Shown here one piece after another: positions 5,232 to 48,528 of a DNA stretch of 64,000 nt. A program made the translations under genes and the position numbers. Under the pieces are notes generated by a model. The model made no database searches. It was not told where the DNA came from and was given only the letters and a program-made list of their open reading frames with translations. Every line of letters begins with the position of its first letter. The first letter of the stretch is position 1. Source of the DNA: Escherichia coli (GTDB lineage: Bacteria; Pseudomonadota; Gammaproteobacteria; Enterobacterales; Enterobacteriaceae); the NCBI RefSeq assembly GCF_050920415.1, contig NZ_CP169309.1; one strand, given 5' to 3'.

Positions 5232-5641
5232 CAGACTGGGTCCTGAATCAAAGAAGGGGAGAGTAAAGACTCTTTCCAGGCATCGGCAATATTGCGCATT
5301 AATGCTTCCACTTCTTCGACTGCGGAGACATCGTTGCGTAAATTGGCTTGCAGCAAGCGCCTGACCATATAGCTATAAAGAGCAATCAAGTTTTGGGTTA
5401 GTTCGTCTTTGCTCTCTTCATCAAGACTCACCTGCAGCCCGTTCTCAATGATGTTGATCGCTTTTGACAAAGAGACGCCTTTGCCTTGCTGATTGTTGTC
5501 CTGCATAAACAGGCGCGCTCTAACCAGTGCGCTCAGCACTCCATCAAATAGCATGGTGACCAGCTGCTGCTGGCTGGCGCTCATTACGGCGCTTTCGACG
5601 CCAATTTGTGCATAGGCCTGGGTGCCTTTTGCCGCGTACAT
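5231..5641 (-). CDS. fliS: flagellin-specific chaperone FliS
   Basis: 136 aa, [19 protein letters not shown].. Confidence 0.92.
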
Positions 5642-5656
5642 AGTTTCTCCTGAAGA

Positions 5657-7072
5657 TTATTTCGAGTTGCTATTTGAGGTGTCGAACTGCTGTGTCAGAT
5701 AGCTACTGGTGGAGTTAAGCGAGTTCATTAACACATCTAATTGGGTGAACTGGGCTTTATAGCGCGTCATTAAGGTATCGATACGCTCACTGGCTGCGTT
5801 GTACTGGTCGGTCAAATTATTCAGCGTTTTGCTGACGCCATCTTTTGCGGCCTGGATTATCCCGGTGGAAGAGAGCCAACTGGTTAGGTTGCTACTAATG
5901 CCGGTGGTTACCCCTGTACTTTTACCGTCACCTATAAACATTTCACCGATGCCAGTGGCATCTTTTTTTAGCGCCGTTTGCAGTTTGTCGGTCGCGATTT
6001 CCAGCTTGCCGGTACTGGCATCGCTGGTAATGCCAATCTGTGCCAGCGTTTTATAGTTTGAACTGCTGTGAGTATTGGCGAGCAAGGTTTTAAGCTGAGT
6101 CTGGATGGTACGCAGTGTGGAGTCACCGAGTAATGCGCCATTGCTGGAGTCCTGACTCTCTGCTCCGGCATCGACAGCGGTGTATTTGGTTAAGCTGCTG
6201 AACGTATCCTGCAATGAGTTATAGGCATCCACCCACGCTTTAACCGCATTTTCAGCTTTGGATGTGTCTTTACTGATGGTCAGTGTCTGATTACCGGTGG
6301 TGACGTCATTCAGGTTGAGGGTGATATCTTCCAGCGCGTCGCTGATAGTGTTACTACTGTTTTCAATCTCAACGTTATTGACTGTCAGTTTGGCGTTTTG
6401 CGCAGTGACGCTTTCAATCATGCCATTGCTGCTATCACCCGACGTTCCGTTGTAACCCATAAAACTTTCCAGGGCGCTGTCGCCGCTGACGCTAAGATTC
6501 ATAGCGTTATCGCTGCCCGTATCGTTAGCGGTGATGGACAGACGATATTCGCCGTTTCCCACATTGATGATACTGGCGCTGACACCAGCTTTGGCGTTGT
6601 TAATGGCATCGCGAATGCCGGAAAGTGACGAGTTACCCGCGCTGATATCAATCGTGACCGGATCTTTACCGCCGCCTTGTTGGATGGTCAGTACGCTATC
6701 GCTGGTGGCGATGGCGGCTTTACTGTCTTTTTGACTATTTTTTGTTGTCAGCGTCTGTGCCTGCGCCAGTTGGCTAACGCTAATGGTGTATTTCCCGGCA
6801 ATCGCGCTGCCCGTGGTGGTGGCGCTGAAAGCCGATGAACTGCTGGTGGTTGAGGTGGCGGTAAATAAATCGGCTTTATTCAGTGCTGTGTTGGCTGTCT
6901 GGAAACTCTCTAGTGCACTTTTCAGCGTCCCGTAGGCGCTCAGTTTCGCGGTGTAAGAGCTTTGCTGTTTTGATATCGGCGTCAGGGTAGATTTTTCTGC
7001 CGCCTCCAGACTGTCAAGGATGCTGCTTAAGTCCAGCCCCGACCCAACCCCAAGCGTTGAAATACTAGCCAT
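5657..7072 (-). CDS. fliD: flagellar filament cap protein FliD
   Basis: 471 aa, MASISTLGVGSGLDLSSILDSL.. Confidence 0.9.
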   Translation of the reverse strand: MASISTLGVGSGLDLSSILDSLEAAEKSTLTPISKQQSSYTAKLSAYGTLKSALESFQTANTALNKADLFTATSTTSSSSAFSATTTGSAIAGKYTISVSQLAQAQTLTTKNSQKDSKAAIATSDSVLTIQQGGGKDPVTIDISAGNSSLSGIRDAINNAKAGVSASIINVGNGEYRLSITANDTGSDNAMNLSVSGDSALESFMGYNGTSGDSSNGMIESVTAQNAKLTVNNVEIENSSNTISDALEDITLNLNDVTTGNQTLTISKDTSKAENAVKAWVDAYNSLQDTFSSLTKYTAVDAGAESQDSSNGALLGDSTLRTIQTQLKTLLANTHSSSNYKTLAQIGITSDASTGKLEIATDKLQTALKKDATGIGEMFIGDGKSTGVTTGISSNLTSWLSSTGIIQAAKDGVSKTLNNLTDQYNAASERIDTLMTRYKAQFTQLDVLMNSLNSTSSYLTQQFDTSNSNSK

Positions 7073-39405: not shown

Positions 39406-41157
39406 ATGATTCAGGACGCTTTTGTGCGCCAGCGTGCGCGGCAACTTTACTGGCAGGGTTATCCGCCCGCAGAAATATCACGTCTGATGGGAATAAACCC
39501 GAACACGATTTATGCGTGGAAAAAACGCGACCAGTGGGATGAAACGCCACCCGTGCAGCGTGTCACGCAGTCCATCGATGCGCGCCTCATCCAGCTCACT
39601 GAAAAACAGAATAAAACAGGTGGTGACTTCAAGGAAATAGACCTGCTGACCCGGCAGCTTAAAAAACTGCATGATGGCCAGCCGGATGCGACGGCCACAG
39701 GAAAGAAAGGCCGGGCGAAAAAGCTTAAAAATCATTTCACGCCGGAACAGATTGCCGCACTGCGGGAAAAAATCATCAGCAGGCTGGAGTGGCATCAGCG
39801 GGGCTGGTTTGACTCCCTGACCCTTTGCAGGGAAGCAGGGATACGTAACAGGATGATCCTGAAATCCCGACAGATTGGGGCGACCTGGTATTTTGCACAG
39901 GAAGCGCTGCTGATGGCGCTGCGTGACGATGTGGCGCAACCTTACCAGCGTAACCAGATTTTTTTGTCTGCGTCGCGTCGTCAGGCGTTCCAGTTTAAAA
40001 GCATTATTCAGAAGGCCGCGGCTGAAGTTGATGTGGAGTTGAAAGGGGGCGATAAAATCATCCTCTCCAACGGCGCAGAGCTGCATTTTCTCGGCACTTC
40101 TGCTGCGTCGGCACAGTCCTATACGGGCAATTTTTATTTTGATGAATTTTTCTGGGTCAGTCGCTTTGCTGAACTGCGCAAGGTGGCTGGCGCTATGGCA
40201 ACCCTCAGCGGACTGCGGCGCACCTACTTCTCCACGCCATCCACCGAAACGCACGAGGCATACGCCTACTGGAACGGCGACCGCTGGAACGAGAAAAAGG
40301 CCACGCATAAACGCCAGCGTTTTTCTGTGGACTGGAAAACGCTGCATAACGGGCTTATCTGCCCTGACCGGACGTGGCGGCAAATTGTCACGCTGGAAGA
40401 TGTGGTTAATCACGGCTGGAAACACACCGATATCGACGAAATTCGTGATGAAAACACCGAAGACGAGTTCCTCAATCTCTATATGTGTGAGTTTGTCCGC
40501 GAAGGGGAATCGGCATTTAACCTGAATATCCTGATTGGCTGCGGTGTTGACGGATACGACGACTGGAAAGACTGGAAACCTTTTGCTCCCCGCCCGATGG
40601 GGAATCGTCCGGTATGGATTGGGTATGACGCAAACGGCAGCAGTGGCAACGGCGACAGCGGCGCTGTGTCCGTGGTGGTTCCTCCGTCTGTTCCTGGTGG
40701 CCGTTTTCGAACGGTGGAGACGCGACGCGCTCAGGGGCTGGAGTTTGAAGAACAGGCCAGAGTCATTGAAGAGTTCACGTGTCGCTACAACGTGGAACAC
40801 ATCGGCATTGATGTGACGGGCGGGAACGGGGAGGCTGTTTATCAGATAGTGAAACGGTTTTTCCCTGCCGCTATTCCGTACACCTTCACGCTGTCATCAA
40901 AACGGTCGCTGGTACTGAAAATGCTGCAAATAATGCGTGCCGGGCGGTGGGAATACGATCGCGCCGAACGCGAGCTGGTCGCGGCCTTTAACGCCGTGCG
41001 TAAGGTGAAAACACCGGGCGGCTTTATCACTTACGAAACGGACCGCGCGAGGGGGATCAGCCACGGCGACCTTGCGTGGGCAACCATGCTTGCTGTCATT
41101 AACGAACCAATTGGCGGCGAAGGAGAAAACGAGCGTTTCACGGTTATGGAGTTCTGA
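39406..41157 (+). CDS. P2 gpP-like terminase large (ATPase) subunit
   Basis: 583 aa in the P2 position, divergent from O. Confidence 0.9.
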   Translation: MIQDAFVRQRARQLYWQGYPPAEISRLMGINPNTIYAWKKRDQWDETPPVQRVTQSIDARLIQLTEKQNKTGGDFKEIDLLTRQLKKLHDGQPDATATGKKGRAKKLKNHFTPEQIAALREKIISRLEWHQRGWFDSLTLCREAGIRNRMILKSRQIGATWYFAQEALLMALRDDVAQPYQRNQIFLSASRRQAFQFKSIIQKAAAEVDVELKGGDKIILSNGAELHFLGTSAASAQSYTGNFYFDEFFWVSRFAELRKVAGAMATLSGLRRTYFSTPSTETHEAYAYWNGDRWNEKKATHKRQRFSVDWKTLHNGLICPDRTWRQIVTLEDVVNHGWKHTDIDEIRDENTEDEFLNLYMCEFVREGESAFNLNILIGCGVDGYDDWKDWKPFAPRPMGNRPVWIGYDANGSSGNGDSGAVSVVVPPSVPGGRFRTVETRRAQGLEFEEQARVIEEFTCRYNVEHIGIDVTGGNGEAVYQIVKRFFPAAIPYTFTLSSKRSLVLKMLQIMRAGRWEYDRAERELVAAFNAVRKVKTPGGFITYETDRARGISHGDLAWATMLAVINEPIGGEGENERFTVMEF

Positions 41158-42203
41158 TGAGCAGAAAAAATAAAAAAGTGCGCATGAGTTCACGCATTGA
41201 TCTCGCTGATGCGCTCAGGAAAGAATCATCGCTCAGTGCATTCACATTTGATGGTCCTTATCGCCTGACCGGGCATGACCTGCTGGACAATATGTACTGT
41301 GCTGATAACGGGCGGTGGTATGAAACCCCGGTGGACTGGTACGGTCTGGCAAGAGCCGCCCGGCAAACGTCCTGGCATCAGTCTGCGCTTTACTTTAAGC
41401 GCAATGTATTGCTCGGTTGCTACATCCCGCACCCGCTGCTTTCCCGGCAGGATTTCTCGGCGCTGGCGCTGGACTGGTTTGTGTTCGGTAACGCATTCCT
41501 TGAGCTTCGAAGCAATATGCTCGGCGAACCGCTTAAATTACGGCACGCCCTGGCGAAATACATGCGACGCGGAAGCGATCTTGAATCATGGTGGTATGTG
41601 CAGGATGGCAAGGATGCGTTTCAGTTTCGCCCAGGCAAAGTGTGCCACCTGATGAATCCGGACATTAACCAGGAAATCTACGGCATGCCGGAATATCTCG
41701 GCGCATTACTCTCGGCCAGCCTGTCTCATTCGGCGGACATGTTCAGAAAACTGTATTACGACAACGGATCCCACGCCGGGTGCATCATCTACATCGGTGC
41801 AGCGCAGGTAAACCGCGAAAGCATGGACTCCCTGAAAGAAACGCTACAGGGTGCGCGTGGTGGTGGTGCGTTTAAAAACGTGCTCATTCATGCGCCCAAC
41901 GGGGGCAAAGAGGGGGTGCAAATTTTGCCGTTCCAGCAGATCACCGCAAAGGATGAGTTCATGAATGTTAAGGCGGCATCCCGTGATGATGTGCTGGCTG
42001 CGCACCGCGTTCCGCCGCAACTGATGGGGGCGATGCCGGGTGAAAAAAGTGCGTTTGGTGATGTGGAGAAGGCCGCGCGGGTTTACGCAATTAACGAGCT
42101 GATGCCCGTCATGGAGGCCATGAAGCATATCAATGACTGGCTTGGCGAAGAGGTGCTCCGCTTTAACCCTTACGCACTGCTGGACACCCAGCCCACATCC
42201 TGA
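41157..42203 (+). CDS. P2 gpQ-like portal protein
   Basis: 348 aa; ATGA overlap with P. Confidence 0.9.
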   Translation: MSRKNKKVRMSSRIDLADALRKESSLSAFTFDGPYRLTGHDLLDNMYCADNGRWYETPVDWYGLARAARQTSWHQSALYFKRNVLLGCYIPHPLLSRQDFSALALDWFVFGNAFLELRSNMLGEPLKLRHALAKYMRRGSDLESWWYVQDGKDAFQFRPGKVCHLMNPDINQEIYGMPEYLGALLSASLSHSADMFRKLYYDNGSHAGCIIYIGAAQVNRESMDSLKETLQGARGGGAFKNVLIHAPNGGKEGVQILPFQQITAKDEFMNVKAASRDDVLAAHRVPPQLMGAMPGEKSAFGDVEKAARVYAINELMPVMEAMKHINDWLGEEVLRFNPYALLDTQPTS

Positions 42204-42627
42204 CGCGCTTCGCTTGTCTGCTGCTTCGCCGGGGCATAAAAAATTTATGCCCCGACTCTCCAGCTCCTGTATCAGTCAGATAATTTCACGACGCCTTCCA
42301 GTTTATCGCCACTATCGACAGTCAGACTCTTACGCAATCCCACTGCGCTGACTGCATGTTCTCGCCGCCTCAGTGCGATTTTGACGGCCTTATCTGCCAC
42401 CCCGTCAAATCAAAAGCCCTCACGTCTTTTTCACGCTCAGCGTGAGAAATACAGCCATTCTGTTGTGTCGCTGCGACATCGTTCAGGGGATGCTATTTAC
42501 CCCCTGAAACGCGGGCTGTTCCCCCGTCACCTGCGCGTAGAAAAAGCGCGTTTTTTTGTGCACGCACGGATCCTTGACGGATCCAGCCGCCACGCGGGCC
42601 GGAAGGGCAAAAAGTCGTTCAAAAAAA

Positions 42628-42654
42628 TTGTGCAAATTTGTGCACTATTGTGCA
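42628..42654 (+). repeat. three TTGTGCA words phased exactly 10 bp apart
   Basis: aTTGTGCAaa tTTGTGCAct aTTGTGCAtt, preceded by an A7 tract. Confidence 0.8.
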
Positions 42655-42662
42655 TTGAAATA

Positions 42663-42683
42663 AACGCCCTGGAAGAGGGCGTT
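42663..42683. terminator. hairpin terminator at the end of the minus-strand early/accessory operon
   Basis: AACGCCCT-GGAAG-AGGGCGTT, with T-rich flanks on both strands. Confidence 0.7.
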
Positions 42684-42694
42684 TTGGCTCATTT

Positions 42695-42955
42695 CTATAG
42701 CTTTGATGCAGGCTGGGCTAGATGTAAGGGTTGGACATACCAGCCTTTTGATAACCAACTCTCTGCAACATCTTTACTCCTTGTTATTGCTGGTATTCCG
42801 ATGCCGTTATTTACATGCATCCATGCTACTGGCTCTGCTTCCAGCGATGCCAGTGCAATTTCATAAGCACGGCGTTCAATATTGTCTCGAACGTCCAGGC
42901 TGCCGATGCGCTCTTTGATTTCTTTAATCAGTTCTTTGTCGGTGAACGTTGTCAT
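42695..42955 (-). CDS. hypothetical protein (86 aa)
   Basis: Last ORF of the tightly packed minus-strand operon. No recognisable domain. Confidence 0.55.
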   Translation of the reverse strand: MTTFTDKELIKEIKERIGSLDVRDNIERRAYEIALASLEAEPVAWMHVNNGIGIPAITRSKDVAESWLSKGWYVQPLHLAQPASKL

Positions 42956-42965
42956 GTGTTAGTCC

Positions 42966-43229
42966 TTATCCTGCTGTGCTTTCAACTGATGAGGGGAACA
43001 AAATCTTTTCATCAAATCCGGCATTCATATCATGGACAGCAACACACCAATCCATCGACGAACGATTATCAAGAGCCTCCATGATTTCATCCATGCGGCG
43101 TAGGTCATACAGGTAAATGTTTTTATCGCCAATGGTGTAAAAACCAATTTTTTTCGGTGATGGACAGCGATCAAGAACGTCCTGTAATTCGTTCAACCAT
43201 GCCTGTTCTTTTTTTGTCAACGTTGCCAT
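42966..43229 (-). CDS. hypothetical protein (87 aa)
   Basis: Start at MATLTKKEQAWLNEL, 1 nt after the stop of the upstream ORF. The listed ORF is extended upstream. Confidence 0.55.
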   Translation of the reverse strand: MATLTKKEQAWLNELQDVLDRCPSPKKIGFYTIGDKNIYLYDLRRMDEIMEALDNRSSMDWCVAVHDMNAGFDEKILFPSSVESTAG

Positions 43230-43230
43230 A

Positions 43231-43449
43231 TCAGTTTTCCTTATACGGATTAATTTTATTGTGCAATGTGTTGAACGACGCCCATACCACGTCGTTATAC
43301 AATTCAATAACTGGCTCAATTATTTTCCCGATTGCCCAGATAAAAATTAGCGGGGATATCGGTATCATCAACACGATAAACAGAATGAGAAACAGAAATT
43401 CTATTGCTCTACTCTTTCGCGGATAGTTTTTCCTGAATAGTGTAGGCAC
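43231..43449 (-). CDS. small membrane protein (72 aa)
   Basis: One or two TM helices (AIEFLFLILFIVLMIPISPLIFIWAIG). Confidence 0.55.
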   Translation of the reverse strand: MPTLFRKNYPRKSRAIEFLFLILFIVLMIPISPLIFIWAIGKIIEPVIELYNDVVWASFNTLHNKINPYKEN

Positions 43450-43450
43450 C

Positions 43451-43645
43451 TCACTCTCCTTTAATGCGAAAGTGGTTTTTCCAGCGGTTTTGCGCCGCGC
43501 TGGGCTTTTTGCAAAAACCGCAATCCATCATCCCGTAATATTTCATCAACCCCATTCGTCGGTTGCTGAGTCTCACCCACTGCCATACGCCTGGATCGTT
43601 TCTGCGAACTAACAGAATCTTTGCTTTACGGTTGTTGGTTGCCAT
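43451..43645 (-). CDS. hypothetical basic protein (64 aa; alternative start at 43666)
   Basis: [23 protein letters not shown].. Confidence 0.5.
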   Translation of the reverse strand: MATNNRKAKILLVRRNDPGVWQWVRLSNRRMGLMKYYGMMDCGFCKKPSAAQNRWKNHFRIKGE

Positions 43646-43961
43646 ATCCCCCTCCCTTGATACCAATATTTACAACATGGCAAGCCTCTTTGAGCACCCA
43701 GTCAACAGCGTCTTTCCATGCTCCGGTTTCGGCTGGCGGATTCTCACGCTTTACCAGTTCATAGAAACGTACTGCTCTAACCAGTCCATCTGACGGTTTT
43801 GCCTGTAGTGCAGCCTGAGCTATGCGGTATGCCTGGAGTATACGGGCGTCGTTGATATCCATTCCGAACGGAATTTCTGATGATTGTGATTCTGCATCTT
43901 CAAGCCTGGCAATTTCTTTACGTAAGAAGTATTTCAACTCTTGTTTTTGTTTTCTGTTCAT
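43626..43961 (-). CDS. hypothetical protein (111 aa)
   Basis: ATGA overlap with the upstream ZBD gene. Confidence 0.55.
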
Positions 43962-44290
43962 GCGTTTTTTCCCTTTTTGTCTGTCACTTCTCTCCTGATA
44001 ATTTCATTGCACAAATCCACGCACTCATTGCAGATGTAAACAGACGGTCCAGCAATCACCTTTGTGACTTCGTACTGGGATTTATTGCAGAAGCTGCAAT
44101 AAATCGTCTCCTCACCTGAAGTCCATGTTTTGCTGGTTTCGCCAGACATCAGTTGTTTGAGGTCTTTTTCACGACGAAGAACTATCTGGCCACATTCAGC
44201 TATTTTTTGGATGTTGACATTTTCTTCTTTCGCCAGCGCTTCCATCCGCTCAATCAGTCGCTGCGCTTTTTCTCTGTCAATGTGTTGCAT
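43958..44290 (-). CDS. protein with a C-terminal ClpX-type C4 zinc-binding domain (ZBD)
   Basis: 110 aa. Residues ~64-102, [39 protein letters not shown], match E. coli Clp[40 protein letters not shown] at about 30 of 39 positions by eye, and all four Cys are kept. Confidence 0.85.
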
Positions 44291-44353
44291 TGTGTCCCCC
44301 TTGTTTATGCTCCCGGGTTAAAGTCATCAGGGCGGATGCGCCCTGATGTTGTG

Positions 44354-44665
44354 TTATTCGGGAAATAACGCCCGGATATTTCCGGCCATCTGACTGGTTA
44401 TCTGTGCGGCTGATACTGGCTGTGACGCGGGGCGTTCTGTCCTGGGTTGTGTCACTGATAACGCCTCATCATCAGCCCATGCAGCCAGTCGGTAAGCCTC
44501 TGCCGGATTCATTTTCAGTAGTGCCAGCCCGGCCAGAAAAGCCACGCGTTGACCACTTTTGCGGGCTTCTGGTGTAAGGCTGTCCAGCCAGGCGCATGCT
44601 TCGCCTTCGTTCTTGACGGCGGCGGGCTTCAGATAGAAACTTATCCGTCTGGTTGGTGTCGTCAT
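44354..44665 (-). CDS. parR: ParR-like ribbon-helix-helix centromere-binding protein
   Basis: 103 aa from MTTPTRRISFYLKPAAVKNEGEACAWLDSLTPEARKSGQRVAFLAGLALL, compared with R1 ParR ..RRTIAFKLNPDVNQTDKIVCDTLDSIPQGERSRLNRAALTAGLALY. Confidence 0.8.
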   Translation of the reverse strand: MTTPTRRISFYLKPAAVKNEGEACAWLDSLTPEARKSGQRVAFLAGLALLKMNPAEAYRLAAWADDEALSVTQPRTERPASQPVSAAQITSQMAGNIRALFPE

Positions 44666-44669
44666 TGGC

Positions 44670-45629
44670 TTACTCCTTGTCCATTGCGTACAGCCCATTA
44701 ACCAGAGCAAACTGTGGCACCCCGTCCGCGATGAAAGTCGCATTAACTCCGCAGGCTTCGCGGATAGCGGGTGCCACAATCTCCGCCCCGCCACCGACAA
44801 CCATCACCCGCCCGTAACCCGAAAAACCCGCCAGCGCGCGGATCACGCGTTGTTTCAGTGTTTCTTCCTTTTCACGAATAACCGCCATCAGGCTGGCGTA
44901 ATGCGCGTCATTGTGGATGTGCTGGCGCAGCCAGGCTTCATCATGGCGATGTTCAATAATGGTATTGGCGATGTGGTGACTGGTGCGCATACCGTTAGTG
45001 GCCATCACCGACAGCACGGCATCGGCCATCAGTGAAACACCTACGTGTGGATCGCAAAACACCTGGCTGATACCTGCCAGTTGTCCCTGAACCTTTGCCA
45101 CATCCAGCGTGGTTCCGCCCAAATCCACAATCAGCAGGGATTCAAACGGACTCATGTCAGCCAGTGCCTTAAAGCCTGCCGGAATGGATTCAGGCATAAC
45201 CCGCACGTTACGGATAGTGAATGCCTCACCGTTCTGGTACTCCACCGGGCGCATAACGTTCGCTTTTTTGCGGTTGATGTTGGCCATGTCCGGCTGTGCG
45301 TTTGTGTCGAAATACTCGCTCAGTGGCAGGGTGACAACCACATCCACCTCCTGTGGCGTGATGCCTGATTTGACCAGCGCGTGATGAATGGCAATGACAT
45401 TCACATCGCTGTATTGGTATTGCGTGTCGGTCGTCTGGACAAAGCGATCGCTGACCGGATCAAAACCATAGCGCACGCCATCAAGCATGTAGTTCGCGGG
45501 CTGCGTGCCACCGAACGGCGCAGACCATTCCGACTTGAAGCTGTTCGGGCTGATGGCGTTGCGGCGTTCGCCGTTCTCAGTCCATGCCAGCTTGATGTTG
45601 GTGGAGCCGTCGTCGATACAAATTTTCAT
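44670..45629 (-). CDS. parM: ParM/StbA actin-like plasmid segregation ATPase
   Basis: 319 aa, MKICIDDGSTNIKLAW..ISPNSFKSEW..YSDVNVIAIHHAL..VMPESIPAGF..LIVDLGGTTLDV..VMVVGGGAE.., colinear with R1 ParM along its full length. Confidence 0.9.
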   Translation of the reverse strand: MKICIDDGSTNIKLAWTENGERRNAISPNSFKSEWSAPFGGTQPANYMLDGVRYGFDPVSDRFVQTTDTQYQYSDVNVIAIHHALVKSGITPQEVDVVVTLPLSEYFDTNAQPDMANINRKKANVMRPVEYQNGEAFTIRNVRVMPESIPAGFKALADMSPFESLLIVDLGGTTLDVAKVQGQLAGISQVFCDPHVGVSLMADAVLSVMATNGMRTSHHIANTIIEHRHDEAWLRQHIHNDAHYASLMAVIREKEETLKQRVIRALAGFSGYGRVMVVGGGAEIVAPAIREACGVNATFIADGVPQFALVNGLYAMDKE

Positions 45630-45663
45630 GTCGCTTTTCCTTATGTTGATTAATTAATCGTTT

Positions 45664-45683
45664 ACGGGATTCTGAAATCCCGT
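45664..45683. promoter_or_regulatory. dyad ACGGGATT-N4-AATCCCGT upstream of parM (candidate ParR operator / parC element)
   Basis: Perfect 8-bp arms. Part of a ~40-bp direct repeat with 45734-45775. Confidence 0.45.
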
Positions 45684-45705
45684 TTTTGCCTGCTTTGTGC
45701 GCGCT

Positions 45706-48528
45706 TCATATATCACTGCGCGTTTTTTGCTCATTTACGGGATTCGTGAGTCCCGTTTCTGTCTGTTTTTTGTTTCCGCTGGTCAGGCCACCCCGCAGCA
45801 GGTCTGCTTTGCGGCTGGCGCGTTCAGTGGTTTCACTGATTCTCTGTGCGTGCTCTGCGTCGCGGATGGCGCGCAGCATGTCAGAAAGCACAGTAACGGG
45901 TGTTTTCATGGTGTTCTGGTCCTGCTGAAGTGTGGATGCCAGGCGTGCGGCGGCTTCAGGGTCTGATGCCCCCAGCTGTGCCAGATAGCTGGCGACCGGG
46001 TTATGGCGGATCTCCGTGCTGCTTACGCCATGATTACGGCTCAGGCGCTGCCAGAGCTGCGTGATTCGGCTGTCCGGGCGGGTATCCGGTTTGCGTACAA
46101 TTTCAAATCCCTGCGGTGCAATGATGCTGCCGTCAACGTACAGACTGCCGCCCCGTAACAGGTGCTGCATCTGTTGTTCACCGATATGCAGGCCGAGAGA
46201 TTCAGCAGACTCCCGCCATTCTTTAGCGAGTAATTCGTGGTTATCAGGCAAAGGCCGCTGCTGTTTGCGGCTCTGTGTCCAGCTCTGCATTTCATCACTG
46301 CTGTTTTTTGCCTGTTTGTCACGAAGCGAACGCATCAGCGCCCGGCGTTCGTGCCGTTTCAGTGAGCGCATCCATTCGTTCACTTCAACGCCGTCAGGGA
46401 GCTGCGGCCACGGTGCTGGCCGTTCTTCCGGCTGTTCTGTCCCGTTGTTGTCCGTTTCCTGTGCACGGGGACAGTTATTGCCACGAGTCCAAGGGGCGGC
46501 AGGGCCGCCCTGAAGGTCAAAACCATTTTCGTGGGCGTTGTCTCCCGGTTCTGGTTTACGTCTTACCAGCTTCCAGTTATCCGGATGCGTGCACACACGG
46601 GAGGATTCCCCGATGAGTGGTGACCAGATCCCGTAAATCTGTACGCTCTGTTCGCCGTAATCGTTCAGCTCATCTGCGAGGTCGTAGGCGGTGCGAATCA
46701 GGTAGTCCTTGCGTGGAACAAGCACGCCACCCTGTTTTTCAATGTAGGTGGCAAAACACCCGGCATCGGCGGCAGCGAGTACCGCATCCATTGCATCATC
46801 TTTCAGCCGTTGCGGGCCTTCCGGATTGCGTGCCATCTGGCTGGCAAGGCGGCGCAGTTCACGCCACACCTGACGGGAGGGGATGCCAAAGAACTGGAAC
46901 TGACGGACCCGGTGAAGGCGCGCCCAGCCGATGGCGCGCTCCACGCTCTCGGCCATTGATTTTCCGGTTTCGTGGTCAACGCGTGGCTTGCCCGTTTTCG
47001 GGTCGATGCCATCCACGGCGCGGCTGTCCAGGTTCTTTCCGATGTAGGTGGCGATGTAGCTGGTTGGTGTGCCTTTTGAGCCGTCGACATACTCCGCCTT
47101 AAAACGCGGAGTTATGTCATCGCCCAGCTCGTGGCGGTCCTCCTGAATGGCAATATCGCAGACGTGGGACACGATGGTTTCAATCTCGTCCGGATGTGCA
47201 AAGACCATCATATGCCAGTGCACAGTGCCGTCATGGTGAGGCTCCACCGTGCGGATGCCATACCAGCGCAGGCCGTCGCGGTTCAGTTTTTTGCGGACCG
47301 CCGCAAAAAACGTGTTAACCAGGTAATCGCTGGAGTCGCGCATGGTGGCCCCGTTCCATTTGGGGTTCGGATGACCGTTCTCCGTTGTTGCGTGGTATTT
47401 TGACGGGCAGGTGACGGTCAGAAACACCGCTCTGTCGCCACGGGCTTCGGCCAGAAGTTCCAGTCCCTTCATGGTGGCCATCATTTCTGCCTTACGGTGA
47501 ACCGGGTTACTTACTCCCGCGTAATACACCGTCTCGAGATCAATCGTGAACCCGTCTTCATTTTCCAGCATGAAACTTTTCAGGAAATCGCGTGTTTTCT
47601 CGCGCTGTGCGCGAAACTCGCTTAACGCGTCCTGGCTCAGATAGGGGGATGTTTTTCTGGAAACCAGACAGGCGGCGCGGAGTTGTTCTTCCCGCCACTC
47701 ACAACGTAACAGCCACAGTTTGCGTTTCCACCATTCCGCACAGGTCAAGCGAAGGATTGCGCCCGGCAGCAGCTCCGTGTCCGGTTCGTTCCTCCGGTCT
47801 TTGTCTGTTGTCAGTGCGTCATAATGTGGAGGCATGGCGTGCAGGTGTAACGCCATGCGGGCCAGCATCTGATAAGCCTTCAGGGTTACATCCATGGTCA
47901 GCTCGCCATCAGTCGCGCCAAAGCCATCGCAGAGTTTTTCGAAGGTGCTGCTGAACATCGCCGCCGTCATGGTGGCCAGCGTCTGTATCTGGTGTTTGTT
48001 GAGCTGCGGCAGGTAAAGCAAATCGTCCAGGCGTTCGCGTCCGGCAAGGGAGCGATAACCCGGTGTCAGCCAGCGGTGGTCGGTGCGGTCCAGACGTTCG
48101 AATATTTTGCGCAGGGTTCCGCACGCGTAGCGTTCAGCCTGCCAGCTCTTTTTGCCTTTCCGGCGATCGGCTTCCTGTTTTTTGCGCAGGAAGGAGAGGT
48201 GGCGAATAAGCGGATCGCGCAGATAGGACGGCAGCAGGCGCAGCGAGGCCATGGCTTCATCCACCGCGCCACGTGCCTGTTTTCTGGCGTCTCCTGCCAG
48301 TGTGATGGTTTTGTCCTGTTTTTCCTGTGCGTCCAGGCTTTTATTAATCAGGTTGCCCAGCGGCGTGGCGGAGAACGCCGCATCAGCCATTTCCTGGCGG
48401 CGCTCGTTCTCTGCCCGGTAGGCATCCAGCCAGGAGGAAAGCGCGGATTCAGGAGCGGGGATCCCCGTTCCTTCACGCCCCACTGCGTGGCGCGGTTGTT
48501 GCCAGTCCCTGATGTACTCTGCCGTCAT
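45706..48528 (-). CDS. P2/186 gpA-family rolling-circle replication initiator, unusually long (940 aa)
   Basis: Contains ..RTVEPHHDGTVHWHMMVF.. (the HUH-type motif of the Phage_GPA family). In the P2 position at the end of the early operon. Confidence 0.85.
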   Translation of the reverse strand: MTAEYIRDWQQPRHAVGREGTGIPAPESALSSWLDAYRAENERRQEMADAAFSATPLGNLINKSLDAQEKQDKTITLAGDARKQARGAVDEAMASLRLLPSYLRDPLIRHLSFLRKKQEADRRKGKKSWQAERYACGTLRKIFERLDRTDHRWLTPGYRSLAGRERLDDLLYLPQLNKHQIQTLATMTAAMFSSTFEKLCDGFGATDGELTMDVTLKAYQMLARMALHLHAMPPHYDALTTDKDRRNEPDTELLPGAILRLTCAEWWKRKLWLLRCEWREEQLRAACLVSRKTSPYLSQDALSEFRAQREKTRDFLKSFMLENEDGFTIDLETVYYAGVSNPVHRKAEMMATMKGLELLAEARGDRAVFLTVTCPSKYHATTENGHPNPKWNGATMRDSSDYLVNTFFAAVRKKLNRDGLRWYGIRTVEPHHDGTVHWHMMVFAHPDEIETIVSHVCDIAIQEDRHELGDDITPRFKAEYVDGSKGTPTSYIATYIGKNLDSRAVDGIDPKTGKPRVDHETGKSMAESVERAIGWARLHRVRQFQFFGIPSRQVWRELRRLASQMARNPEGPQRLKDDAMDAVLAAADAGCFATYIEKQGGVLVPRKDYLIRTAYDLADELNDYGEQSVQIYGIWSPLIGESSRVCTHPDNWKLVRRKPEPGDNAHENGFDLQGGPAAPWTRGNNCPRAQETDNNGTEQPEERPAPWPQLPDGVEVNEWMRSLKRHERRALMRSLRDKQAKNSSDEMQSWTQSRKQQRPLPDNHELLAKEWRESAESLGLHIGEQQMQHLLRGGSLYVDGSIIAPQGFEIVRKPDTRPDSRITQLWQRLSRNHGVSSTEIRHNPVASYLAQLGASDPEAAARLASTLQQDQNTMKTPVTVLSDMLRAIRDAEHAQRISETTERASRKADLLRGGLTSGNKKQTETGLTNPVNEQKTRSDI
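45737..45756. repeat. second copy of the dyad (ACGGGATT-N4-AGTCCCGT), inside the 3' end of gene A
   Basis: 73 bp from the first copy. Flanking TTT..GTTT(C/T)T also conserved. Confidence 0.45.

Follow-up and report, generated by a model that had tools for sequence, protein, structure and literature searches.

A block of six small accessory genes downstream of gene A in a P88-like prophage of Escherichia coli, with a ClpX-like zinc-binding domain in its first product

The stretch of DNA analysed here, referred to as the window, comprises 64,000 nucleotides of Escherichia coli contig NZ_CP169309.1 (assembly GCF_050920415.1). Within it, positions 42695-44290 belong to a P88-like prophage of the P2 family (Peduoviridae, genus Xuanwuvirus). 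According to the list of open reading frames (ORFs) of the window, this region is filled by six consecutive minus-strand ORFs, which we designated O1 to O6 in the direction of reading. The block probably forms the promoter-distal tail of the prophage's early operon, that of gene A, and consists of six small, exchangeable accessory genes, rather than being defence cargo of the old/tin type. The six ORFs are as follows.

43958-44290, minus strand, O1, 110 residues
43626-43961, minus strand, O2, 111 residues
43451-43645, minus strand, O3, 64 residues counted from ATG
43231-43449, minus strand, O4, 72 residues, GTG start
42966-43229, minus strand, O5, 87 residues counted from ATG
42695-42955, minus strand, O6, 86 residues

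From O1 to O6 the junctions between successive ORFs measure -4, -20, +1, +1 and +10 nt, and inspection of the sequence revealed a Shine-Dalgarno-like motif ahead of all six starts. The same six coding sequences were called by RefSeq PGAP in the 99.9%-identical prophage of E. coli FDAARGOS_1059. Because all six ORFs matched PHROG families (E values from 1e-26 to 1e-58) and the ratio of nonsynonymous to synonymous differences (pN/pS) relative to their relatives was 0.06-0.64, with the values for O1 and O2 based on few differences, they are judged on sequence comparison to be genes under purifying selection and not chance ORFs. An earlier interpretation made from the letters of the window alone (the sequence-only reading) had described six tightly packed ORFs with lower GC content than the structural genes. 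Its coordinates and sizes were exact, its overlapping or near-abutting junctions were confirmed, and the GC content of the six ORFs is indeed low, at 0.38-0.48 against 0.55-0.58 for A, parM and parR. The same reading had called the ORFs unknown and had recognised no domain in them besides a ClpX-type zinc-binding domain. They are uncharacterised and that domain is real, but the sequences are not novel: all six belong to catalogued families and their type of arrangement is already listed in a published Table S5A (see below). Nor is the zinc-binding domain the only recognisable element, as O4 is a DUF4014 protein and O2 and O6 are related to proteins of the Ea22/EaA type.

Three parts can be told apart in O1. 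Residues 6-48 form an N-terminal helical hairpin, residues 49-62 are a disordered linker, and residues approximately 63-102 are a C4 zinc-binding domain (ZBD) with a C-terminal helix. Its AlphaFold (AF2) model had a predicted local distance difference test (pLDDT) score of 81.5. Residues 64-99 matched Pfam family PF06689 with 64.5 bits, the gathering cutoff being 27, and the protein matched phrog_6797 at 1.5e-58. The best matches of O1 in the PDB were structures of the E. coli ClpX ZBD (1OVX and 2DS5-2DS8; E value 2e-19). The zinc-ligand residues C65, C68, C87 and C90 are invariant across the O1 family. As in O1, all four zinc-ligand cysteines are present in E. coli ClpX, and residues 64-105 of O1 align with residues 14-55 of ClpX without a gap over 42 residues, 31 of which are identical. 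At the DNA level the identity between O1 and clpX was 81/126 (64%), and third codon positions agreed at only 15/42, which amounts to saturation. Since so many residues match yet the third positions are randomised, the comparison indicates that the ClpX-like residues of O1 have been kept by selection after an old divergence. The same DNA and third-position figures exclude a recent capture of host clpX as the origin of O1.

Unlike E. coli ClpX, O1 has no AAA+ module and carries an unrelated N-terminal helical hairpin instead. TIGR00382 covered only model positions 6-52, with 50 bits against a cutoff of 371, and the search of NCBIfam returned ClpX N-terminal matches only. A protein of 110 residues without the AAA+ module is not a ClpX unfoldase. 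We also considered an SspB-like 'LKxh' docking motif in the hairpin (LKQL, residues 44-47), which was rejected as the Lys is not conserved in the family. The full-length O1 family is narrow and was found in Escherichia and Salmonella only. In P2-like prophages of Salmonella and E. coli that lack parMR, O1 homologues (44-54% identical) are located directly after gpA and before the portal gene. Homologues of O1 are widely annotated as 'carboxylate--amine ligase' (P0001, P0003, P88 AIZ95127 and D6 YP_009914770). Since the proteins contain no ligase domain, the name seems to be a mistake that has been propagated.

The possible function of O1 was considered in the light of what is known of the ClpX domain. 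Free ZBD is said to block degradation of lambda O and to bind MuA and the SspB tail, in studies reportedly by Wojtyra 2003 and Thibault 2006. It is further known that the ZBD is a docking platform for adaptors of ClpX and that its deletion abolishes RssB-mediated breakdown of sigma-S (PMC7226468 Fig. 1c-d). Supplied in trans, the isolated domain inhibits RssB-mediated sigma-S degradation by ClpXP in a dose-dependent manner (PMC7226468 Fig. 1d), and IraD and the ZBD have been proposed to use a common docking site on RssB (PMC7226468). O1 is essentially a tethered free ZBD, and free ZBD inhibits in trans, therefore a decoy activity would be expected. By this analogy, O1 might tentatively be regarded as a decoy of the ClpX N-domain. 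It would dimerise like the host ClpX domain, would be bound in its place by adaptors and substrates that need the ClpX N-domain (RssB/sigma-S, the SspB tail, lambda-O-type and MuA-type) and would thus spare selected phage or host proteins from ClpXP. Slightly more doubtful is the fuller proposal that the mimic, early in infection or induction, titrates adaptors and N-domain-dependent substrates and so stabilises a phage protein or sigma-S. As a speculation, the protein protected by O1 could be gpA, which is encoded just upstream. The titration might also prevent ClpXP-dependent triggering of toxin-antitoxin or abortive-infection defences. Searches of the literature on phage ClpX mimics and zf-C4_ClpX found no prior functional work on these families.

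Several known regulators of Clp proteases resemble O1 in part. Mycobacterial ClpC2 has a similar layout, in which a domain that dimerises, at the N-terminus, is combined with a copy of the ligand-binding N-domain of an AAA+ unfoldase (ClpC1), and acts by sequestration, as a molecular sponge (PMC10030653). It differs from O1 in that it concerns ClpC and not ClpX, has a different fold and is a cellular gene; the analogy is functional only. With Gp53, an adaptor-like modulator of ClpCP, phage SPO1 provides an earlier example of Clp protease activity being re-tuned by a phage (PMC6873191); again the analogy is only functional, the protease being of the ClpC type and the fold different. For the anti-adaptors IraD, IraM and IraP the outcome, stabilisation of sigma-S, would be matched if O1 bound RssB as free ZBD does, but they have no homology to O1.

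In P88-like phages O1 is accompanied by O2. At its N-terminus O2 carries a short motif of the Ea22/EaA kind, and approximately 50 residues at its C-terminal end are common to the C-termini of Ea22-like proteins; in tblastn, the matches of residues 50-106 lay under the C-termini of annotated Ea22 genes of lambdoid phages. O2 matched phrog_26213 and phrog_660 at about 2e-27, is 97% identical in P88 and 94% identical in UTI89 over residues 1-103, and had no match in Pfam. O6 combines an EaA/Ea22-type N-terminal part of 44 residues with a distinct C-terminal half, and matched phrog_5117, phrog_660 and phrog_60 at 1e-21 to 2e-26. Over residues 1-44 it shares 86% identity with the N-terminal end of L0065 from the Stx phage 933W ('similar to EaA of P22'), and O6 is 87% identical to the N-terminus of D6 orf104. 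O2 and O6 have the N-terminal motif in common, and both matched phrog_660 and phrog_60. Neither of them hit Pfam Ead_Ea22 (PF13935) at E<=1 or matched the solved C-terminal domain of lambda Ea22.

O3 is very basic, with an isoelectric point (pI) of 11 and a charge of about +11.6 over 64 residues. It matched phrog_1380 at 1.6e-38, and elsewhere it occurs as a module fused to other domains, at the C- or N-terminal side, in phrog_12350 and phrog_9263. O4 is a single-pass membrane protein of the DUF4014 family (PF13198, 91.6 bits against a cutoff of 23.2, residues 2-72 of 72), with a 19-residue hydropathy maximum of 2.97 from residue 19; it is 93% identical to 933W L0067. O5 is acidic (pI 4.7) and belongs to a phage-specific family, mostly of 87 residues, that extends across Enterobacterales from Escherichia to Edwardsiella and Pectobacterium. 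Its alpha/beta fold was predicted confidently and resembled neither any solved structure nor any known inhibitor, so that on the model we are confident in describing it as an orphan fold. Sequence searches of the PDB with O2, O3, O5 and O6 gave no match, and no prior functional work on these families was found in the literature on DUF4014 or on Ea22 plus anti-defence.

To place the block among its relatives, the window was compared with related phages by blastn. In P88, the sequences corresponding to window positions 42303-42721 and 43652-44400 are contiguous, and the window has 930 additional bases (42722-43651), which represent O3-O6 minus the last 27 nt of O6. In UTI89 and PhiR44_2, O6, O5, O2 and O1 are 96-97% identical to the window, and window positions 43234-43651 (O3 plus O4) are replaced by a single gene for a 163-residue protein of the XF1762 family. 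The flanks are 94-98% identical, while the content of the block differs among these close relatives (P88, UTI89). The junctions and the replacing gene are listed below.

43651/43652, no strand, recombination junction at the O2 3' end and the O3 start, the boundary common to the P88 and UTI89 comparisons
43233/43234 and 42721/42722, further junctions in the blastn map
UTI89 5632-6123 and PhiR44_2 6270-6761, XF1762-family gene, 163 residues, in the slot of O3 and O4

The XF1762-family protein is weakly similar to the Mom family of DNA-modification proteins, PF25680, below threshold (E value 1.3e-4, 22.1 bits, cutoff 27.1). P88 looks like a deletion derivative, with the 3' end of O2 joined to the 3' end of O6, and not like the ancestral state, because its O2 homologue (KP063541, 6096-6434) ends in the last 27 nt of O6 of the window.

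Three DNA segments of 933W, corresponding to O3, O4 and the 5' part of O6, are 93-96% identical to the window and follow the same order, O3, O4 and O6 N-terminus; O5 and O1 have no counterpart in that phage. The 93%-identical O3 homologue of 933W (AF125520, 3766-3945, minus strand) is an unannotated ORF and partly overlaps the annotated L0068 (3546-3833), apparently in another frame. Genes like O3, DUF4014 and the O6 N-terminus also occur in the same order in the P1-like plasmid prophage D6, where an O1 homologue lies 4 kb from them beside an Ea22-like gene. The O1 homologue of PhiR41_1 likewise adjoins an Ea22-like gene. Relatives of O2, O3 and O5 (52-61% identical) were found in a small-gene array of the virulent Vequintavirinae phage Av-05. 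A supposed conserved pair of XF1762 and O5 genes in Av-05 was discarded, the 163-residue ORF of that phage not being of the XF1762 family. O5 relatives are also present in approximately 59-kb Salmonella phages of the Chi type, which we take to be virulent.

Of 5426 complete E. coli genomes, 5 contain all six genes of the block, 71 have the O1 plus O2 pair, and 2281 (>40%) gave a match to some part of the block. The results indicate that the block is a gene-by-gene mosaic drawn from a pool common to P2-like, lambdoid, P1-like and virulent phages. Two layers can be distinguished in the alignments: O1 and O2 form a resident pair after parMR in P88-like phages, and O3-O6 form a swappable string. 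Another P2-like prophage, in E. coli GCA_020343335.1 (7364-10431), has a different co-oriented string after A, encoding proteins of 143 and 55 residues, a ClpX-ZBD protein, a 174-residue protein, DUF7446, Ead_Ea22 and a 167-residue protein. Because of this string, an early-operon tail of ea-type genes can be said to recur in several P2-like lineages.

The gene order around the block is major capsid, scaffold, terminase large subunit, portal, a gap of 490 nt, O6 to O1, ParR, ParM and A. Beyond A lie about a dozen more co-oriented early genes, ending at a divergent regulator-integrase pair at approximately 51-53.5 kb. The neighbouring genes are given here.

41157-42203, plus strand, portal gene (gpQ homologue; ORF list, RefSeq 'phage portal protein'), downstream border of the hotspot
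44354-44665, minus strand, ParR (PF10784, 1.2e-23)
44670-45629, minus strand, ParM (PF06406, 1e-82; PF21523, 1e-68)
45706-48528, minus strand, gene A, replication endonuclease, 940 residues (ORF list, RefSeq name in the identical prophage), upstream border of the hotspot

Lying between A and the portal gene, the block occupies the A-Q interval, a published hotspot of P2-like phages (PMC9122126, PMC13586616). Rousset et al. 2022 analysed 18,150 such loci, of which about one quarter had a putative plasmid partition system, and their Table S5A includes arrangements of the type 'StbA + Plasmid_stab_B + zf-C4_ClpX + hypothetical ...' (PMC9122126). A 2026 survey placed many defence systems of P2-like prophages between GpA and GpQ (PMC13586616).

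Signals that may govern expression of the block were searched for in the window, and three were retained.

42663-42683, minus strand, terminator-like hairpin closing the operon (-14.8 kcal/mol, z -3.6), then UUUAUUUC
44325-44348, minus strand, GC-rich hairpin with a 10-bp stem, placed between parR and O1, which are 63 nt apart (-22.9 kcal/mol, z -4.2)
45658-45699 and 45731-45772, a pair of direct repeats of 42 nt from the repeat search; both copies contain the palindrome ACGGGATTC-N-AATCCCGT

In RNA folding none of 200 shuffled sequences was as stable as the first hairpin, which a strict terminator scan did not list. The second hairpin coincides exactly with the step in GC content from 0.56 to 0.43. 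On the coding strand a U-tract is missing, and the scan called the hairpin terminator-like on the plus strand only. Its function could be that of an attenuator or of an element for RNA stability, or it could be a sequence at a module boundary. The two repeats are 79% identical and 73 bp apart, one in the gap between A and parM and the other in the 3' end of A. They probably represent a parC centromere with the operator for ParR. The parC of plasmid ParMRC systems contains the promoter of the operon, and a promoter that serves parMR and all downstream genes may lie in this region. The promoter scan detected no sigma-70-like promoter at parC or within the block, where 3 promoter-like sites were seen against 5.4 expected, that is, without enrichment. 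No LexA box was found near the block; the only one lies inside gene A at chance level, which excludes a tum-like SOS control. A search of Rfam with 42100-45800 returned nothing above threshold.

These data bear on the remaining parts of the sequence-only reading. Its placement of the block in a variable hotspot between A/parMR and the cos side agrees with the published interval and with the changing content in close relatives, cos itself being positioned by inference. The hairpin behind the terminator it had proposed at 42663-42683 is real, no internal promoter is evident, and the ORFs are co-oriented with gene A, unlike old and tin. The check it had suggested with PADLOC gave no hit for O1, O3, O4, O5 or O6 and one chance-level hit for O2 (E value 0.025, 11 bits), so that by homology, with none of the six proteins giving a usable hit in PADLOC, the block is not a defence system. 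The statement that the ORFs are driven only by the early lytic operon was overstated, in view of the parC-like repeats upstream of parM and the U-tract-less hairpin before O1. The overall interpretation holds in so far as the block is not a defence system and expression during lytic growth fits, and goes too far as to sole control by the early operon and as to anti-defence roles.

That the block is transcribed with the early lytic genes is suggested by comparison with other phages. The nearest homologues of its genes are in the pL-early exo-xis region and others are in virulent phages, so expression during lytic growth fits. In lambdoid phages the xis-exo genes are among the first to be transcribed, from pL, and the region is reported to alter the balance of lysis and lysogeny and the expression of host genes (PMC8614690, PMC10789677). 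The phenotypes published for exo-xis genes have to do with the choice between lysis and lysogeny and with host physiology. Like the block, the exo-xis genes of 933W (L0065-L0068) and Phi24B are small, abutting and co-oriented and form the distal end of an early operon; unlike them, the genes of the block follow gene A in a P2-family genome and do not lie between exo and xis. Close homology to this region was found for O3, O4 and the O6 N-terminus. None of the six belongs to the conserved, studied exo-xis set (orf60a, orf63, orf61, orf73 and ea22), and the 933W homologues, L0065, L0067 and the unannotated ORF, lie in the variable part beside xis.

P2 itself offers two further comparisons. There, orf91 (DUF3850/ASCH) is directly downstream of A and on the same strand, a position analogous to that of the block, but it has no sequence relationship to any of the six, and P2 has one gene at this place against parMR plus six in the window. 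P2 old and tin and other gpA-gpQ defence cargo share with the block the slot from the endonuclease to the portal/cos and the variability of content. In P2, however, old and tin are on the opposite strand with a mapped mRNA start of their own near cos, whereas the block is on the strand of A, shows no promoter and matches no defence hidden Markov model. The most likely role of the accessory genes would be to modulate host physiology and the course of lysis and lysogeny during infection or induction, and such early-lytic, host-modulating roles are plausible.

A number of points weigh against an early-operon tail with a decoy at its head. Insulation of the block by the strong hairpin that separates parR from O1 is conceivable; a further promoter would then be required, and none was found. 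The parC-like region upstream of parM could drive the block in lysogens. For five of the six proteins there is no mechanistic clue. The N-terminal hairpin of O1 could make it an adaptor or regulator instead, as in the case of ClpC2, which is also a transcription factor (PMC10030653). Finally, ZBDs are highly conserved in general, so that a resemblance to E. coli ClpX is no proof that O1 mimics the host.

Other explanations of the block were weighed against the same evidence. One or more of the six proteins might inhibit host immunity, for example O1 by blocking the turnover of antitoxins by ClpXP and so preventing activation of toxin-antitoxin or abortive-infection systems, or the acidic O5 as an inhibitor or DNA mimic. 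The probable placement in the early operon, the small size of the proteins and the rapid swapping of cargo at gene boundaries would suit such a cassette. So would the O5 relatives in virulent phages, the low pI of O5, the weakly Mom-like XF1762 protein in the O3-O4 slot of sister prophages and the ability of free ZBD to block adaptor-mediated proteolysis by ClpXP. However, none of the six is known as an anti-defence protein in the literature searched, the fold of O5 matches no known inhibitor, and the exo-xis genes studied so far influence the lysis-lysogeny decision, not immunity. Moreover, in 1511 P2-like prophages the anti-defence models of DefenseFinder recovered only Anti_RM and Anti_CRISPR, in 28 elements (PMC13586616). 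We consider an anti-defence cassette unlikely.

Rather less probable still is that the genes are cargo expressed in the lysogen for conversion or superinfection exclusion, co-transcribed with parMR from a ParR-regulated parC promoter, with O4 as an exclusion factor comparable to old or tin. Expression in the carried state is possible because a parC-like site lies upstream and only a hairpin without a U-tract stands between parR and O1. A partition system is useful only if expressed in that state, the hotspot is one where P2-like phages carry defence genes, and O4 is a small membrane protein. This explanation is opposed by the orientation of the block on the A strand, the lack of a PADLOC match and of a sigma-70-like promoter at parC or in the block, and the relatives of O2, O3 and O5 in obligately lytic phages. 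The lambdoid homologues, furthermore, are part of the pL early operon and are not lysogen-expressed morons, and O1 homologues follow gpA in P2-like prophages without parMR. The last observation bears also on the proposal that O1, perhaps with O2, is a plasmid-type maintenance accessory tied to ParMR or to extrachromosomal carriage, for instance by stabilising a replication or addiction protein that is labile to ClpXP. O1 is directly after parR here, and full-length O1 homologues in the phage collection were present only in phages with plasmid-like features, namely D6, PhiR41_1 and CMS-2020a, which are plasmid prophages, and ParMR-carrying phages of the P88 type. Yet in D6 and PhiR41_1 the O1 gene is inside ea-type arrays beside Ea22-like genes, not partition genes. 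Because O1 recurs after gpA where parMR is missing, in Salmonella as in E. coli, a tie of O1 to ParMR or a plasmid lifestyle was rejected, and a maintenance role in any form is very improbable.

The early-operon tail is accordingly the explanation that we retain for the block. The hotspot, the type of arrangement and the six protein families are already present in databases and the literature as uncharacterised entries, and we found no record in the literature of this type of locus having been tested. The analysis adds a precise mosaic map, in which the early operon of a P2-family phage is linked to the exo-xis pool of lambdoid phages. It also recognises O1 as a selectively maintained copy of the ClpX N-domain with a proposed, testable decoy mechanism, and yields the orphan fold of O5. 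The gpA-gpQ slot is usually read as a defence island, and the locus shows that it may also be occupied by a continuation of the early operon, made up of the very 'dark-matter' small genes found between exo and xis in lambda-like phages. Being compact and genetically tractable, the locus is a setting in which functions could be assigned to families that more than 40% of complete E. coli genomes contain. P88 and PhiR44_2, both of them in culture, are distinguished by clean swaps of cassettes. O1 provides a concrete and cheap biochemical hypothesis on how temperate phages might tune host proteolysis. If true, O1 would represent a new class of phage protease-decoy, one that is met with again behind gpA in several lineages of P2-like phages as well as in plasmid prophages.

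The position of cos was sought in the 490-nt gap between the block and the portal gene by MAFFT alignment of the P2 end junction with window positions 42760-42150.

42513-42531, minus strand, candidate cos 19-mer GGTGACGGGGGAACAGCCC, 13/19 identical to P2 cos GGCGAGGCGGGGAAAGCAC

The match of 13/19 is weak, and its position is the main support; by synteny, cos is placed in this gap. In the GenBank record of P88, two tiny ORFs (129 and 144 nt) are annotated in the cos gap and look spurious. As to the upstream border, the product of gene A has 940 residues against 763-838 residues for the gpA homologues of the other P2-like loci compared, and the extra C-terminal part of the gene overlaps one of the parC-like repeats.

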